Positions 8,800 to 56,873 of a stretch of DNA of 64,000 bases are shown piece by piece; within the stretch, counting starts at the first letter, position 1, and each line of letters opens with the position of its first letter. This stretch comes from a virus (Duplodnaviria > Caudoviricetes). The DNA is taken from the IMG/VR virus record IMGVR_UViG_2902759955_000002, positions 107,854 to 171,853 of that record; one strand, 5' to 3'. Position numbers and translations under genes: made by a program. Below the pieces are notes generated by a model. The model was given only the letters and a program-made list of their open reading frames with translations, did not search any database and was not told the origin of the DNA.

Positions 8800-9768
8800 T
8801 TACTTGGTAATGGTCGTGCTCACAATGCCTGCGTGTGTGAACTGCGACCCGGTGCTCGCGGCCGTGGTTCCTTTGCCCGCAGGATTGGGGACCTGGTAAT
8901 GCTGACCCGCGACTTCCATGGGAACGCTCGCCGGTGCACCCAGCTGCGCTTTTGCGTGCGCCTCCGCATGGGTCAGATAACCAAGCCCTTCAGGCATGTA
9001 GACCGAACGGGCACCCATCGCTTGCGTTTGCGCGGTCGCAAGGGGGTAGGGGTCGGTTACTCCCGCCGGGCGGGCACCCGATGCCACCACGCCGGTTGGC
9101 GCAACCGCGGAGTAGAGGTTACGCGTGAGGAACATGGTGTCGTAGAGCGAGCGCACCAAGGTTTCCTCTTCTTCATTGCGCGCGCCGGTCTGCGTGACAA
9201 TCCACTGCAGTGCTTCGAAGGGGAATGGCGGGAACTCGATTTCACTGGAACGCAGGGGCGAGACGAACTGCTTTACTTCCAGATCGATCTTGACCCACGG
9301 GTGATAGCTGCCATCCGGCTTCAGGAAGAAGTCACATTCCCAGACCAGCCCCTTCCCCATGCCGGTCGGAACATCCTTGTCGGCGATCGGATAGCTGTAA
9401 CGGTCCTTGATCATGCCGCGGTCCGACAGCACGCGAAACAGGTCGAAGTTCGCCTCGGTCGCAGCGATCGGACACTCGTCGTTCGCACCATCCGGGTGGC
9501 GGACCTTGGTGGTCATGACGTAATCGGGCTTACCCGCCTTCTTGCCTCGCAACTCCACCGTCTTACGGATACGGATACCGCCCTGACCACCATTCTGCTC
9601 GGACTTCGGGATTTTCAACTCCCACTGCTCCTGATGCTCCACTACGGCGTTATAGCCCGGCGGCACATCGACCGGCTCGGCGAGCCGTGCATAGAGGACG
9701 TATTCCTTCTCGTCGAACTTCTTGCCATGCGCCGCTTCTTCCAGCGCCAGTTTGAGCAGTGACTGCAT
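8800..9768 (-). CDS. CYTH/triphosphate-tunnel-like protein, probably virion-associated
   Basis: EKEY (ExE) near the N-terminus, IRIRK, IKDRY, WECDFF and KIDLEV resemble CYTH motifs; N-terminal ALE. Confidence 0.5.
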   Translation of the reverse strand: MQSLLKLALEEAAHGKKFDEKEYVLYARLAEPVDVPPGYNAVVEHQEQWELKIPKSEQNGGQGGIRIRKTVELRGKKAGKPDYVMTTKVRHPDGANDECPIAATEANFDLFRVLSDRGMIKDRYSYPIADKDVPTGMGKGLVWECDFFLKPDGSYHPWVKIDLEVKQFVSPLRSSEIEFPPFPFEALQWIVTQTGARNEEEETLVRSLYDTMFLTRNLYSAVAPTGVVASGARPAGVTDPYPLATAQTQAMGARSVYMPEGLGYLTHAEAHAKAQLGAPASVPMEVAGQHYQVPNPAGKGTTAASTGSQFTHAGIVSTTITK

Positions 9769-9780
9769 TGCCGCTTCCTT

Positions 9781-10278
9781 TTATCCCGTTTTCAGATCGA
9801 GCCAGAGTTCGACGATCTGTTTAGCTGTGTCGAGCATGCCGCTCAGTGCTTGTCCCGAAGAGAGCACCCCCATGTGAACCGCCGTGGCCAAGACCAGGCC
9901 GATCATCACGGCAAAGAGGAAGAAGACGAACGCACCACCTAACCAGTAGATCTGGCGTTGCAGCGACTTCGTCTTTTCCTTGAGGACCTTCGGGTCGTAC
10001 TCGTTCGGGGTGGTCAGATCCTTGGTCGCCTTGCTGTACCGCGCAAGGATGGCGACCTGTTGTTCAGGGTCGAGTGACTTGATGGCGTCCTTCAGGTCAC
10101 GACCAGTGGAACGCGCATCGAGGTTACGCAGATCCAGGCGCGGGACCGACAGCGCACGGTACGCCAGCACCACCTCGGTAAGCGGGGAAGGGCCGGCGAT
10201 CTGCCGATCGAGGAGCGACTCGTCGTCGATCCCGCAGAGAATACTGTCGACCAGGTTGCTGGTTTCTTCGTCCATCAT
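9781..10278 (-). CDS. Membrane protein, candidate holin/antiholin
   Basis: C-terminal hydrophobic helix; translationally coupled to the spanin genes (ATGA overlap). Confidence 0.45.
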   Translation of the reverse strand: MMDEETSNLVDSILCGIDDESLLDRQIAGPSPLTEVVLAYRALSVPRLDLRNLDARSTGRDLKDAIKSLDPEQQVAILARYSKATKDLTTPNEYDPKVLKEKTKSLQRQIYWLGGAFVFFLFAVMIGLVLATAVHMGVLSSGQALSGMLDTAKQIVELWLDLKTG

Positions 10279-10661
10279 GAGCTTGTCTTCGTCCCCGGGG
10301 CGCTGGCTGCAGCGGGTGCGACAGCGGTGGCCGGTTGGTTTGCGGCGTTCGCTTTATCGACAATGGCTTTCTGTTGCGTCCACCAGCTACGCAGTTGCGC
10401 CTTGTCGATGTTGCAATTGCCGACGTTGACCGTCTGGGCCGAGTACGAGTGGTTCCAGGCGTCTTCCTTGCCTTCGGCCGTCATCGTGGTGTACGCCGTC
10501 TTGTCGGGTGGGGGTGCGACCGGACACGGGGTCGTCAGGGTCGACGGCAAATCCGGCATCCAGTTGTTGTATTTGGTCTGCAGCGTGGGCAGGCTCGCCG
10601 GACATGCCGTGAGCGAGAGTAAGGCGGCGATGCAAAGCGCTAAGCGCAAGATGTGCTTCAT
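10275..10661 (-). CDS. o-spanin (Rz1-like outer-membrane lipoprotein)
   Basis: Signal peptide with lipobox LTAC; Pro-rich segment with PC..PPP and CN.DK..LR.W. Confidence 0.75.
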   Translation of the reverse strand: MKHILRLALCIAALLSLTACPASLPTLQTKYNNWMPDLPSTLTTPCPVAPPPDKTAYTTMTAEGKEDAWNHSYSAQTVNVGNCNIDKAQLRSWWTQQKAIVDKANAANQPATAVAPAAASAPGTKTSS

Positions 10662-10700
10662 GGTGTTCCTCGTAAGGTTTTGTGTGGGTCCGGAAATGGG

Positions 10701-11240
10701 CTAGGGTGCCGCGCTCGTAGTGGACGTTGGTGGGCTGGTACTCATCGCAGGGGTGCTGGCAGGCGTCGTGCTCGCCGCGGTGCAGCCCGCTGTGCCCGCT
10801 GGCGTGTTGTTGCAATAGGTTTGCCATGCGGCGTCGATTTGTATCGTGCTAATCGCAGTTTCTTCAGCCTGCTGATCCTGCGTAGAGAGGACCTGTGTGG
10901 TTCCCTGCGGCTGGTAGTGTTTCTTCACCGCGATGATCTGTGTCTGGGTGCTCGCGTTCACCGCGACTTGCGTCGTATTCGCTGTCGCTTTCTGTGTGGT
11001 GTCGGCTGCAGCCACCTGGTCATTCACCTTGCCCGACTGCTGTAGCGTCTTGATCTGTGCAGTCAGGTTTTTGTTCGAGTTCGTGAGGTCGGTGATCTGC
11101 TGTGTGGCCTTCCCGGCCTGAGAGATCAGAGACTTGACTTGATGGGCTTCGTAAAGGCCGTACCCACCCAGGCCAAGAATGGCCGCGACGACAAGCGTCC
11201 CGATGATGAGGGTGGCATATTCCTTGATCGTGTCTAACAT
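10701..11240 (-). CDS. i-spanin (Rz-like)
   Basis: Single N-terminal TM helix, then coiled coil, then AWQTYC; directly upstream of the lipoprotein. Confidence 0.7.
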   Translation of the reverse strand: MLDTIKEYATLIIGTLVVAAILGLGGYGLYEAHQVKSLISQAGKATQQITDLTNSNKNLTAQIKTLQQSGKVNDQVAAADTTQKATANTTQVAVNASTQTQIIAVKKHYQPQGTTQVLSTQDQQAEETAISTIQIDAAWQTYCNNTPAGTAGCTAASTTPASTPAMSTSPPTSTTSAAP

Positions 11241-27457: not shown

Positions 27458-28663
27458 ATGAACCACAAACTGCTGCTGGTGAAGTGCATTACGCTCCTGT
27501 TCCGTGAGAGCCAGCTGCCGGGGGGTCATGAGAATTCCGCCACCTTGGTGCGCAACGTCATTGCGAATATCAAGGAAGCTCAGATCTCTATCGGTCTGGA
27601 TCACGAACGCGAAGTCACCATCGCACTCAAGAAAATGGCGATCACCATGTGTGAGACGCCCCCTGATCACGAACACGATGTGGACGAAGCGCTGCAGCAA
27701 CTGAAAGTTGCGTGCGGCGAGGATGAAACGCTTTTTGATTCGTTTCGCGAAGGGATCGAAAAGGAACTGACTGAAAACCGCACGAAGAAGATGGCGCTGA
27801 ATCTGCGCCGCTCTTTGAACGAGTATTTCCGCGAGGAGAAGATCCAGGAGATCATCTTCAACGCGTCGAACAAGCTGCGCTTTAACCGCGGGCAGGTCAT
27901 GAACATGAAACAGTTCGTGGCTGAAACCGTGGCGCTTCTCGAGCCGTATCAGGTCGACAGCGAAACGAAGGATCCGGCGATTGTCGCTTCGGTCAATCTC
28001 GCCATGGCCGAAGAGGTCAAAACGATCTTCAAGAATGTGCAGAAGGCCGAGCAGGGCGGGGGGATTCTGCGCACGGGATGGCAAGGCGTGAACCGCATGT
28101 GGCGGGGTGGCTTTCGCCGAGGTCAAGAAGTGGTGATCGGCGCGCTGCAGCACAACTTCAAAACCGGCTTCTCGCTCGGGGCCTTTATCGGCGTGGCACT
28201 TTTCAACACGCCCGAGACAGCATTCCCGGAAATCCTCACACCGAAGAAGCCGCTGCTCTATCGGGTCTCCTTCGAAGACGACCTCGAGCTGAACTTCCAG
28301 TACATGTACGAAGTGCTCATGGCCTACGACGGGCGTGAGAACGAGATTGTCGTCAAGACGAAGGAAGACTTCGAGGCGATGACCGCCGAAGAGCTCGAAG
28401 GCTATATCGACAAGATCTCGGCGTACGTGATGGAGCGCATGCGCGTCAATGGCTTCGAAGTGATCATGGAGCGCGTGAATCCGTCGAACTGGACGTACAT
28501 GCATCTGTGCAATCGGATGCTCGAACTCGAATCCGACGGCTACGAAGTGTTCATGTGCATGGCGGATTACCTACCCATGTTGCCGACCACGGGCTGTCTG
28601 CAAGGTCCGGCCGGCACGGACATGCAGGACATGTACCGTCGTATCCGTAACTTCATGTCGGCT
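27458..28663 (+). CDS. dnaB: DnaB-like replicative helicase, exon 1
   Basis: LRTGWQGVNRM..GGFRRG, variant Walker A GALQHNFKT, SFED, Walker B ADYL; frame stops at the TAA that begins the intron. Confidence 0.85.
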
Positions 28664-29043
28664 TAAAGTAATTTGAAAAACTTGTCAAGGGATTCGAATT
28701 CCAGGCCCTCGTGTAGGAAACTACACAAGTAAAACTCTTTGAATTGACGGGAAACCCCTGAGAGCTCTTCCTACCAAACGCATGGAGCAATTCATGCGCG
28801 GCCAGCGTAATGACCTGGGTACGGTAACAAAGGAAGAGATTGGGCAATCCGCAGCGAAGCTTCTCTGTGAGAAGAACGTTCAACGACTATGGCGTGACTG
28901 CCAGTACCGAGCAAGCGCTTGGGAAGTGAAGAGCACCTGACCGGCCACTGCCGAAGGTGAAGATATAGTCTGCTCCATTGGGAAAGCCAATGGCGGGTGT
29001 CATCGCACACCGGCTCCGTCTAGCGAACGGAGTGGACAACAGG
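28664..29043 (+). ncRNA. Group I self-splicing intron (IA-like, no homing endonuclease)
   Basis: P AATTGACGGG 28742, Q AATCCGCAGC 28846, R GTTCAACGACTA 28878, S AAGATATAGTC 28960; 5' exon ends in U and the intron ends in G; splicing restores NFMSA|KKIAFPTPHQLS. Confidence 0.9.
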
Positions 29044-29421
29044 AAGAAGATCGCGTTCCCGACCCCGCACCAGCTCTCGACCGACGCCAAGCAGATGATC
29101 CGCGATGGCAAGAGCGACTTCGTCAAGGAGTTGCCGGGTAAGGGCTATTACAAGGGCTGCAAGCAGATTGATCAAGAGGTTGATCTGGAGACGTATATCC
29201 ACATCGAGAAATCGAACAACGAATCGTTCCTGACGATCCAGCGGGGCAAGCATCGGCTTATCGGTCAGACCAACCCGAAGGATCTCTACTGCGTGCTGCC
29301 TTTCACGAAGTACGGTTTGGCGTTTGATGTGGATCGTGCCGACACCACGCGCAAGAAGGTGGGCGGCGGTCCGATCGGCAGCAACGAAGAAACCCCGTTC
29401 TGGGAAACGATGGAAGCGTAA
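29044..29421 (+). CDS. dnaB: DnaB-like replicative helicase, exon 2
   Basis: TPHQLS, IDQEVD and LTIQRGKHR helicase C-terminal motifs, in frame after splicing. Confidence 0.85.
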   Translation, partial: KKIAFPTPHQLSTDAKQMIRDGKSDFVKELPGKGYYKGCKQIDQEVDLETYIHIEKSNNESFLTIQRGKHRLIGQTNPKDLYCVLPFTKYGLAFDVDRADTTRKKVGGGPIGSNEETPFWETMEA

Positions 29422-54910: not shown

Positions 54911-55120
54911 TTAAACGCCGTTTCTTATTTTCGCTACGTCGACGCCGGCGGCAGCGGCATGAACGCTCGAGACCGGAATCGGTGCAGCCACCGGTATCGA
55001 CGAGAGCACGTTTCCATCAGCCTCACGAATTACCCGCTGGGCAAACAGGAAATGCTTGCCGTATCGGGCGACGCCCAAGGCGCCTGCAATGACGAACAAC
55101 GCCATCAGTGATTGCCACAT
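54911..55120 (-). CDS. Small membrane protein
   Basis: GGAGG RBS; MWQSLMALFVIAGALGVARYGK. Confidence 0.55.
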   Translation of the reverse strand: MWQSLMALFVIAGALGVARYGKHFLFAQRVIREADGNVLSSIPVAAPIPVSSVHAAAAGVDVAKIRNGV

Positions 55121-55319
55121 GGTTCCCTCCGTGGGGTCAGACGCAGGCCCGGCCTGCATAGGATGACCGCTTCCCGGAAAGTCAAAACCGCACCGTCTTG
55201 GCTCGACGCTATTCCTACGACGAAAAAGAACTAACTCGACGGCCGCTAGGAACTAATTGTTGGCCGAAACTGCGGTAGAATCGGCAGCCTTTACGTGAGA
55301 CCCAAGTCGTGAGGCAGTT

Positions 55320-56363
55320 GTGTTCGGTAAGTTTCAGCAGGAAGTAGATCACGGGGTGCGCGAGCGCATCCATGCGTTTATGCACGTGCCGGGTGGGTTC
55401 CGCCGGGCGAGCGTGCACGAGGAGAACGCCCAGCTTGAGACATTCGTGCGGCTTATCGAGCTGGTGGAGCTGCTCAAAAAGCAGACGGGTGACGCCGTCC
55501 CCCTCAGGCAAAATCCCCAATCCAAGCGCGTGTTCATTCCGAAGACCAAATTCACGAATCTGCTTCGCTACTGGATTGATAGCGAGCCCGACAATATCCA
55601 GCAGCATTTCCCGTTTCATCGCCTGCATCCTTGGCTGCATATCCTGACGGAGTTCGTGCCGAAACTGTCACGGCATCGAGATTGGCTGGAAAACCCCAGC
55701 CTGTTAAGCAGGGCTGCATTAGTCGAGCGGGTCGATGCGATAAATCAGGTAATCACCACTACCAAGGCTCACCTGTTTAATTCGGAGACATTGAGCGCGG
55801 CGAGCGACTTCACGCGCAACGCGAACAAGAATAGGCTGAGCCTCAAACGTTATACCGAGTCCCTCCTGGACCATTATGGTCCGCTGCAATCGCTTCGGCT
55901 CGATCTGGGTTATCTGGATCGGGTCACGTATGCCGCTCGCCATTTACCGGATATTGCGTTTCTGGATATGGAACAACATCGCAAGCGATTAATTGAGTAC
56001 GTTCGCCGCCAATTAGCCCCGTCTCCGGTCGGCTATATCTGGAAGCTTCAGCATAGCGCGACGACTTCCTACCGGTTTCATCTAATTCTGCTGTTTCGAC
56101 AGGACGACCTTTCGTTTGCGCAGTTACGGGGGGACCAGATCGGCCGGCATTGGGTACAGGCAATTGCACAGGGGAGGGGCGGATATTTCAACTGGAATGT
56201 GCCCGATAATGAATTCGAGCGAAACGGCACTGGCTATATCCGCATCCCCAGCGAACTCAAGAGCACCATCGAATATGTCACGCGTCTTGATCGGTATATG
56301 CGACTCACCACGCCCGTAAAGTCCCATACCCTTGTGAAGGGCACGATGCCCAAATCCAAATGA
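55320..56363 (+). CDS. YagK/YfjJ (inovirus Gp2-like, HUH-related) family protein; start uncertain
   Basis: LRLDLGY, GYIWKLQ, FHLILLF, IG.HW and Y..RLD patterns; only plus-strand gene in the accessory region. Confidence 0.65.
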   Translation: MFGKFQQEVDHGVRERIHAFMHVPGGFRRASVHEENAQLETFVRLIELVELLKKQTGDAVPLRQNPQSKRVFIPKTKFTNLLRYWIDSEPDNIQQHFPFHRLHPWLHILTEFVPKLSRHRDWLENPSLLSRAALVERVDAINQVITTTKAHLFNSETLSAASDFTRNANKNRLSLKRYTESLLDHYGPLQSLRLDLGYLDRVTYAARHLPDIAFLDMEQHRKRLIEYVRRQLAPSPVGYIWKLQHSATTSYRFHLILLFRQDDLSFAQLRGDQIGRHWVQAIAQGRGGYFNWNVPDNEFERNGTGYIRIPSELKSTIEYVTRLDRYMRLTTPVKSHTLVKGTMPKSK

Positions 56364-56504: not shown

Positions 56505-56580
56505 TGGCAAGGGTGGCAGGAATCGAACCTACGACACGCGGAATCAAAATCCGCTGCTCTACCAACTGAGCTACACCCCT
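56505..56580 (-). tRNA. tRNA-Gln(TTG)
   Basis: 76-nt cloverleaf; anticodon arm GCGGA-TTTTGAT-TCCGC; encoded CCA. Confidence 0.9.
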
Positions 56581-56586
56581 AGAGTG

Positions 56587-56678
56587 TGGCGGAGAGGGTG
56601 AGCTTCGAAGTCACGGAAGGCCCTCAAGCCCTCACTGGTTTTCGAGACCAGCGCCTTCGACCGCTCGGCCGCCTCTCC
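56587..56678 (-). tRNA. tRNA-Ser(CGA) with atypical T-arm
   Basis: Anticodon arm CTGGT-CTCGAAA-ACCAG; long variable arm; G73 + CCA; T-arm GTGAC-TTCGAAG-CTCAC. Confidence 0.82.
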
Positions 56679-56694
56679 TAGATACTGCTGAAAC

Positions 56695-56772
56695 TGGCTC
56701 CGTGACCTGGGCTCGAACCAGGGACCTCCGGCTTAACAGGCCGGCGCAATCTACCAACTGAGCTATCACGGA
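56695..56772 (-). tRNA. tRNA-Asn(GTT)
   Basis: Anticodon arm CCGGC-CTGTTAA-GCCGG; CCA; 2-nt insertion in the D-stem 3' strand. Confidence 0.85.
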
Positions 56773-56786
56773 TCTACTACGGAAAC

Positions 56787-56873
56787 TGGTGGGCAGGGTT
56801 GGATTTGAACCAACGAAGGCGCTAGGCCACCAGATTTACAGTCTGGCCTCTTTAACCACTCGAGCACCTACCC
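56787..56873 (-). tRNA. tRNA-Tyr(GTA)
   Basis: Anticodon arm CCAGA-CTGTAAA-TCTGG; long variable arm; A73 + CCA. Confidence 0.92.

Follow-up and report, generated by a model that had tools for sequence, protein, structure and literature searches.

An endonuclease-less, IA-like group I intron in the DnaB-like helicase gene of a phiKZ-like jumbo phage

What interrupts the DnaB-like helicase gene of a jumbo phage within its conserved domain, and what product does the interrupted gene encode? The locus lies in a stretch of 64,000 nucleotides (nt) from a virus of the Caudoviricetes (IMG/VR record IMGVR_UViG_2902759955_000002, positions 107,854 to 171,853), which we call the window at its full length. 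An earlier note, made from the sequence of the window, observed that the helicase frame stops at 28666 and resumes at 29044. Indeed, the frame is closed by TAA at 28664-28666 and the same phase is open again from 29044. We conclude, with a probability of roughly 0.93, that the insert is a structurally intact, endonuclease-less, IA-like group I intron in the helicase gene of a phiKZ-like jumbo phage, and that it represents an empty allele of a mobile intron family.

The two sides of the insert match consecutive parts of one protein family, in PF20307 (divDNAB) as well as in phrog_3213. The open reading frame (ORF) upstream covers positions 2-238 of the 356 in PF20307 (E 3e-65, 220.7 bits) and 1-384 of the 509 in phrog_3213. 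The ORF downstream covers positions 240-350 of PF20307 (E 1.1e-39, 136.6 bits; the cut-off is 26 in both cases) and 387-507 of phrog_3213. PF20307 describes a divergent DnaB-like ATPase, and the joined exons give a profile match above the cut-off over the full domain. The host gene had been read as a DnaB-like helicase in the earlier note, and both families agree with that reading. Further, the record note of the homolog in phage PhiPA3 names phiKZ gp118. Protein similarity thus supports the assignment of the interrupted gene as a phiKZ gp118-type divergent DnaB-like helicase. The start codon was picked by alignment with the N-terminus of ORF096 of Ralstonia phage RP12, and the joined exons would encode a single helicase of 527 amino acids (aa), reading ...RNFMSA-KKIAFPTPHQ.... 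Its closest relatives, at 63-75% aa identity, are found in IMG/VR and on phage-like contigs in Caballeronia and Paraburkholderia assemblies, followed by the helicases of Burkholderia phage FLC9 and RP12.

The insert itself has the sequence and fold of a group I intron, as had been claimed from the letters alone. When the whole window was searched on both strands with 4227 Rfam families, RF00028 matched 28684-28993 over its full model (1-253), at 80.7 bits (gathering score 50; E 6.5e-19), and a search of the complete phage genome returned the match again. The minimum free energy (MFE) fold of a 396-nt stretch has -132.4 kcal/mol (z -2.31), and none of 100 shuffles folded as low. Combining the Rfam alignment with this fold gave a structure model of 22 helix segments and 101 pairs, all 101 of which are canonical in the window sequence. 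The model contains P2, P3, the two hairpins after P7, P8 and the three P9 hairpins that the earlier note had listed, and the coordinates given in that note hold for every item. The core segments GACUA and GAUAUAGUC agree with the RF00028 consensus. The position of P7.1 and P7.2 between P7 and P3′ is what we take, in the scheme of Michel and Westhof (1990), to be the mark of subgroup IA.

Comparison among introns points the same way. We aligned four: that of the window, one in an RNA polymerase (RNAP) gene of the same phage genome, and two from PhiPA3, in gp65-66 and in its helicase gene. Among these, 86.3% of cells pair, compared with 33-46% after a shift of the 3′ partners by 1-3 columns, and both sides have changed at 40 of the 101 pairs, compared with 8-14 in the slid versions; the structure was derived from the window sequence itself, which inflates this advantage over the slid controls. 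None of 500 shuffles matched the observed values for pairing and double changes. P3 is fully paired, with both sides changed in 3 of its 6 pairs, as is P7.2 (4 of 6), while P9.2 is 96.4% paired (4 of 7). Both sides have also changed in 6 of 10 pairs in P5a and 5 of 8 in P5b. P7 is invariant in all four introns.

The same position is occupied in other phages. As a new result of this analysis, we found that no fewer than six further phiKZ-like phages, namely PhiPA3 and five IMG/VR contigs (L029, L070, L072, L110 and L120), have a group I intron at the identical helicase codon boundary. These six inserts score 83-104 bits with RF00028. A wider IMG/VR sample of 80 helicase loci, one of them cut, leaves 79 that are evaluable, and 4 of the 79 (L070, L072, L110 and L120) are interrupted at this boundary. 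In the RefSeq record of PhiPA3 (NC_028999), the helicase appears as two coding sequences (CDS), gp134 and gp131, about 1790 nt apart at the same codon boundary. Both are called 'DnaB-like replicative helicase', which is the outcome the earlier note had anticipated in predicting that gene callers would report two broken genes. Like the window intron, the PhiPA3 insert follows an exon T, starts with TAA, ends with G, and carries an RF00028 core, which lies at its end (83.1 bits). Unlike the window intron, it holds an unannotated ORF of 474 aa 5′ of the core, with HNH_3, NUMOD1 and I-HmuI-type domains. Its core is the most distant from that of the window among those compared (53-56% identical). 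No paper describing the PhiPA3 helicase insert was found in the literature searched, where most subscription journals were outside reach.

These same-site introns differ in their cargo. ORFs of 379, 472 and 472 aa are present in the inserts of L070, L072 and L110, and none in those of L029 and L120. The HNH assignment was confirmed for the PhiPA3 ORF. Because the L072 ORF is 43% identical to it over the full length (E 8e-135), a dedicated family of helicase-site nucleases exists. The large ORFs are sited in the P1 loop, and the corresponding L1 loop of the window intron consists of 38 nt (28665-28702). The helicase boundary is a recurrent intron site. The window intron is one of the empty alleles of a mobile intron family, and an ordinary one; it is no new kind of element.

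The splice sites are defined by pairing at one end and by homology at the other. The earlier note had proposed that a guide GGCC at 28704-28707 pairs with exon GGCU through a G-U pair; U28663 and G28704 do form this wobble at the 5′ splice site, all the pairs are canonical, and U28664-A28703 extends P1. Reading by eye, we found in each of the seven helicase-site introns a guide motif A-G-G-N-C shortly before P2, and its N is always the complement of exon base -3. The two bases are C-G in the window, L029 and L120, G-C in PhiPA3 and L070, A-U in L072 and U-A in L110. At exon position -1, where a codon has its third base, all 7 intron-bearing alleles have T, and all 11 intron-less alleles read at the nucleotide level have G or C; this fits the requirement for a U-G pair.

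At the 3′ end, joining U28663 to A29044 gives NFMSA|KKIAFPTPHQLS, the product predicted in the earlier note. As a sequence join it is confirmed and is collinear with intron-less homologs; the RP12 protein, for example, aligns gap-free across the ...NFMSA|KKIAF... junction. The choice between 3′ sites at 29043 and 29046, which the note had referred to homolog alignment, falls on 29043, since 29046 would remove one residue relative to all collinear homologs, and the join at 29043 is gap-free against every uninterrupted homolog examined. Searching a phage collection by tblastn with the last 121 residues of exon 1 and with exon 2, we found the exon matches to abut in 32 of 34 phage records, or 26 of 27 distinct phages, among the matches listed for both exons. 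The two non-abutting records are both PhiPA3. The exon matches also abut in five full-length IMG/VR relatives (L010-L013 and L015), in four phages read as nucleotides, in three contigs of bacterial assemblies, and in 75 of the 79 evaluable loci of the wider IMG/VR sample. Further, a tail of 10 nt follows P9.2 and ends in G29043. The same 10-nt tail closes the PhiPA3 gp65-66 intron, whose ends are published (PMC10643120), and the rule also yields a collinear junction for the RNAP intron of the same genome (phrog_3148 1050/1051).

The absence of an endonuclease from the intron, claimed earlier, was borne out. Its longest plus-strand ORF has 52 aa (28782-28940) and lies over the conserved core; neither this ORF nor the three minus-strand ORFs of the intron (72-79 aa) has a Pfam match (0 of 4). 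No HNH_3, HNH or GIY-YIG match was found anywhere in the 64-kb window, and no free-standing nuclease adjoins the helicase. A stretch of the 52-aa ORF, 'EIGQSAAKLL', recurs in PhiPA3 gp133, which is annotated as a 100-aa 'putative endonuclease'. However, gp133 (L009 964-1266) overlaps the ribozyme core of the PhiPA3 helicase intron and is probably a spurious ORF, and the stretch is present in the window because the 52-aa ORF likewise overlies a ribozyme core. On C11, the contig that contains the window, the sole match to the PhiPA3-type helicase-site nuclease is the HNH protein of the RNAP intron (28% over residues 87-246). Judged from sequence comparison, C11 is without an ortholog of the helicase-site endonuclease, and for this reason the window intron cannot home by itself. 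The earlier note took it to be immobile or mobilised in trans, which is reasonable: its transmission would be vertical, and any movement would depend on recombination or on a nuclease brought in by a co-infecting phage. An occupied site would presumably remove the target of such a nuclease. Two free-standing endonuclease genes were seen elsewhere on C11: an HNH gene directly beside the thymidylate synthase gene (about 9763-10758; L048 1264-2259) and a GIY-YIG homing endonuclease gene (about 112022-112771; L049 1523-2272). No RF00028 signal was found near either, and both are far from the helicase.

In the mechanism we propose, which follows the standard group I pathway, the gene would be transcribed as one pre-mRNA. 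The intron would then fold, with P1 formed between the guide A-GGCC (28703-28707) and exon GGCU plus the adjoining U. Free guanosine bound at P7 would attack after U28663, the freed exon end would attack after the terminal G29043, and the ligated exons would encode one 527-aa helicase. Without splicing, translation would end at the TAA that opens the intron.

Several observations weigh against an intact, spliced intron. Besides the inflated covariation contrast given above, P1 is short, with four exon pairs and one intron pair. P2 is only 41.7% paired across the four introns, in a region that is poorly aligned, and the sequence 5′ of P2 is likewise poorly conserved among relatives. No convincing P10 was found by eye; the 3′ exon can form only about three offset pairs with the sequence that precedes the guide. 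The intron appears IA-like by the Michel-Westhof criteria, with the finer classes IA1, IA2 and IA3 taken together. Lastly, no dataset containing 28300-29400 is recorded as RNA. In run X2, whose type is only guessed as RNA, a 248-nt contig lies on 28634-28659 and 29056-29248 without the intron, with 15 other letters between the two parts. It keeps both AAG codons and differs from exon 2 at 2 of 193 letters; its last exon-1 bases differ from the window, and its length falls one letter short of the predicted ligated exons. We rejected this contig as proof of splicing, because it represents another allele and its molecule type is only guessed. It may be a close intron-less relative, or the RNA of that relative.

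These points bear most directly on the possibility that the intron is a decayed, splicing-dead relic, and the helicase a pseudogene or functionally replaced by another protein. P1 is short, and the intron lacks an endonuclease that could maintain it by homing. However, the core helices are all intact and canonical, and the RF00028 score is well above gathering. Moreover, both exons have kept open frames in a common phase, their identity to relatives is 63-83%, and the helicase is conserved across 260 phage records. We therefore regard a relic as very unlikely.

The annotation of two helicase CDS in PhiPA3 invites another explanation, namely that the helicase is made as two associating polypeptides, with a ribozyme-like spacer retained between them. 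However, exon 2 lacks a start codon at the junction, and the sole in-frame start upstream of it is a TTG inside P9. The break also separates two conserved blocks that adjoin each other in 75 of 79 relatives. Finally, a full group I ribozyme is present, and its guide tracks the exon in all seven introns, which would be purposeless without splicing. We consider a split gene even less probable than a relic. The features on which the intron reading and the comparisons below rely are listed in Table 1.

Table 1. Coordinates of the helicase intron, its exons and helices, and of related elements. Positions are those of the window unless another record is named.
Feature	Position	Strand	Details
Group I intron	28664..29043	+	380 nt; opens with in-frame TAA, closes with terminal G29043
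Helicase exon 1	27458..28663	+	402 codons from ATG 27458, ending ...NFMSA
Helicase exon 2	29044..29421	+	125 codons, starts KKIAFPTPHQLS, stop 29419-29421
P1	28660-28664 with 28703-28707	+	exon GGCU and U28664 pair with A28703-GGCC28707; also in MFE fold
P2	28711-28716 / 28721-28726	+	6 base pairs, GAAA loop
P3	28735-28740 with 28928-28933	+	encloses P4-P6, P7 5′ strand, P7.1 and P7.2
P4-P5-P6 domain	28745..28879	+	three-way P5a/b/c extension 28765-28838
P7 pseudoknot helix	28885-28889 with 28966-28970	+	conserved R/S core
P7.1, P7.2	28890-28903, 28907-28922	+	hairpins between P7 and P3′, inserted relative to RF00028 consensus
P8 with inner helix P8a	28934..28959	+	100% paired, 3 of 5 pairs changed on both sides (four introns)
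P9, P9.1, P9.2	28975-28993, 28994-29012, 29013-29033	+	MFE fold and canonical pairs
Exact 45-nt repeat shared by window intron and RNAP intron	28959..29003	+	copies about 66 kb apart, on opposite strands
Second group I intron, RNA polymerase beta gene	C11:135455-136833 (L002 1455-2833), outside window	-	junction phrog_3148 1050/1051
PhiPA3 474-aa HNH_3/NUMOD1 ORF	L009 1266-2690 = NC_028999 about 116865-118289	-	
Same-site insert L029 (IMG/VR)			404 nt; found by core 21-mer search
Same-site insert L070 (IMG/VR)			1794 nt
Same-site insert L072 (IMG/VR)			1777 nt
Same-site insert L110 (IMG/VR)			1789 nt
Same-site insert L120 (IMG/VR)			342 nt

The second intron of the genome, a paralog of the helicase intron and likewise a new result, lies in the RNA polymerase beta gene. 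It scores 42.6-47 bits with RF00028, below the gathering score, and encodes a 336-aa HNH_3 / I-TevI-DNA-binding / NUMOD-like protein between its 5′ splice site and core. Its identity to the window intron is 68-69% over the core, and 78 of the last 84 nt of the window intron are identical in it, including 34 of 34 across J8/7-P7′-P9 and 44 of 50 from P9.1 to the tail. On these identities, the 3′ domain of the window intron looks recently homogenised with its co-resident RNAP counterpart. Inversion or gene conversion could proceed through the 45-nt inverted repeat that the two copies form.

Contigs of run X1 break within 28959-29003, where depth is raised. A mis-join of the intron or its 3′ part through the repeat, which X1 contigs ending and starting inside it might suggest, is the least likely explanation of all: one X1 contig starts in exon 1 and continues into the intron as far as 28988, a second begins at 28974 and crosses the distinct 3′ end of the intron into exon 2 with no differences, the sequence downstream of the repeat differs from the RNAP intron, the helicase and RNAP genes are both collinear only in the given arrangement, and the site also holds an intron in six other phages.

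The core of the window intron has its closest relatives partly outside the helicase gene. Its identity is 68% both to the RNAP intron of the same genome and to the intron of PhiPA3 gp65-66, and 67% to L029, compared with 53-63% for the remaining helicase-site introns. In a maximum-likelihood tree of nine cores (unrooted, drawn with a midpoint root), the window intron groups with the two RNAP introns with support of 95/91, and L029 joins next (98/98). Single segments have different nearest relatives: P3-P5 is nearest L029 (29 of 30), P5′-P7 is nearest PhiPA3 gp65-66 (50 of 51), and P3′-P8 is nearest the PhiPA3 helicase intron (24 of 36, compared with 10 of 36 for the own RNAP intron). This mosaic of similarities suggests, as far as sequence can tell, that ribozyme segments have been exchanged between introns, including both copies on C11. 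A grouping of the introns by target gene was considered and rejected, as neither core identities nor the tree follow the insertion site.

Searches for closer relatives of the window intron returned little. A 35-nt exact pattern from P7′-P9 was found in no IMG/VR contigs, a 21-nt core pattern matched 27 loci of which none is closer than the own-genome RNAP intron, and a metagenome scan for close helicase relatives yielded one weak locus. Sliding nucleotide identity at the junction, computed against nine intron-less homologs to look for a co-conversion tract, has no dip or jump (0.68-0.90 for the closest three), which at this divergence speaks neither for nor against such a tract.

A more specific history is doubtful, and we offer it as a speculation. 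The 3′ domain at 28959-29043 may recently have been overwritten by gene conversion from the RNAP intron, and the empty intron may persist because its presence in the homing site confers immunity to the helicase-site HNH nucleases of rival jumbo phages. If both parts were true, the intron would be a chimera upheld by two processes, introns at unrelated sites would exchange ribozyme modules and yet keep site-specific guides, and the window intron would be the defensive counterpart of the intron in PhiPA3 gp210, which acts as a weapon.

The td, nrdB and sunY genes of T4 contain comparable phage group I introns. These introns belong to subgroup IA, interrupt genes of DNA metabolism, and are polymorphic for presence or absence of both intron and ORF. 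Variants of T4 introns without an ORF occur, as does collaborative homing with free-standing endonucleases. Their ORFs are positioned in P6 or P9 and not in the P1 loop. Compared with the window intron, T4 introns come from another phage lineage and other genes.

Group I introns are also established in phiKZ-like phages, according to two studies and a review (PMC11620839, PMC10643120, PMC12908238). As described by Enustun et al. 2023 (PMC10643120), the PhiPA3 gp65-66 intron lies in the nvRNAP beta gene at nt 55005-55454 and is ORF-less. It resembles the window intron in lacking an ORF and in coming from a nucleus-forming phiKZ-like phage, and nothing in the phage collection gives a better DNA match to the window intron (70.6% over 78% of the latter). 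The two have in common P5abc, the P7.1/P7.2 and P9.1/P9.2 layout, and the 10-nt 3′ tail. Unlike the window intron, that of gp65-66 interrupts an RNA polymerase gene, is 450 nt long, and has a longer 5′ region and a short P8. According to Birkholz et al. 2024 (PMC11620839), the virion RNAP beta gene of PhiPA3, gp210, contains an intron that brings an HNH homing endonuclease; their study provides a framework for intron-based competition between co-infecting jumbo phages. Like the window intron, the gp210 intron belongs to group I and interrupts a gene that is essential to a phiKZ-like phage; unlike the window intron, it has its own nuclease and resides in another gene. The 21-nt core pattern also matches PhiPA3 at 74120-75340 on the minus strand (L031), and PhiPA3 thus carries at least one further intron of the family besides those in gp65-66 and the helicase gene. 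The word 'helicase' has no occurrences in Birkholz et al. 2024 (PMC11620839), and the literature searched, which excluded most subscription journals, yielded no description of an intron in a helicase gene of the phiKZ type.

The genome that carries the helicase intron is itself informative. The window corresponds to positions 172968-236967 of C11, a contig of 286,074 bp within a 7.68-Mb bacterial assembly. The GC content of C11 is 57-60%, compared with 63% in the remaining assembly. The contig starts and ends with the same 125 bases and is consequently a closed, complete element. A phiKZ-type major capsid protein gene (PF25620, E 1.8e-186) lies beside the helicase, and profile matches among the window proteins identify an internal head protein and an SNF2-type helicase. 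On these grounds, we conclude that C11 is the genome of a phiKZ-like jumbo phage, assembled together with a bacterial genome of 7.4 Mb that is presumably its host. The synteny of the helicase and major capsid genes matches that in RP12, RSL2 and PhiPA3. Similar phage contigs sit in assemblies of Caballeronia arationis and Paraburkholderia (L044-L046). The occurrence of phage contigs within bacterial assemblies suggests a carrier state or pseudolysogeny. The window also contains a cluster of four tRNA genes (56508-56873, minus strand; RF00005, 40.7-66.6 bits).

For the phiKZ-like phages, the intron has a practical and a biological meaning. An essential helicase gets called as two fragments, as in the RefSeq annotation of PhiPA3, and the correct product is one protein of 527 aa. 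The boundary ...(A/P/S/T)|(K/R/Q/H)..., just upstream of a conserved TPHQ block, recurs as a homing site among these phages, and it occurs in nuclease-bearing, empty and unoccupied alleles. Together, the helicase-site and RNAP introns provide a natural system for intron-mediated competition between jumbo phages and for the shuffling of ribozyme cores between sites.

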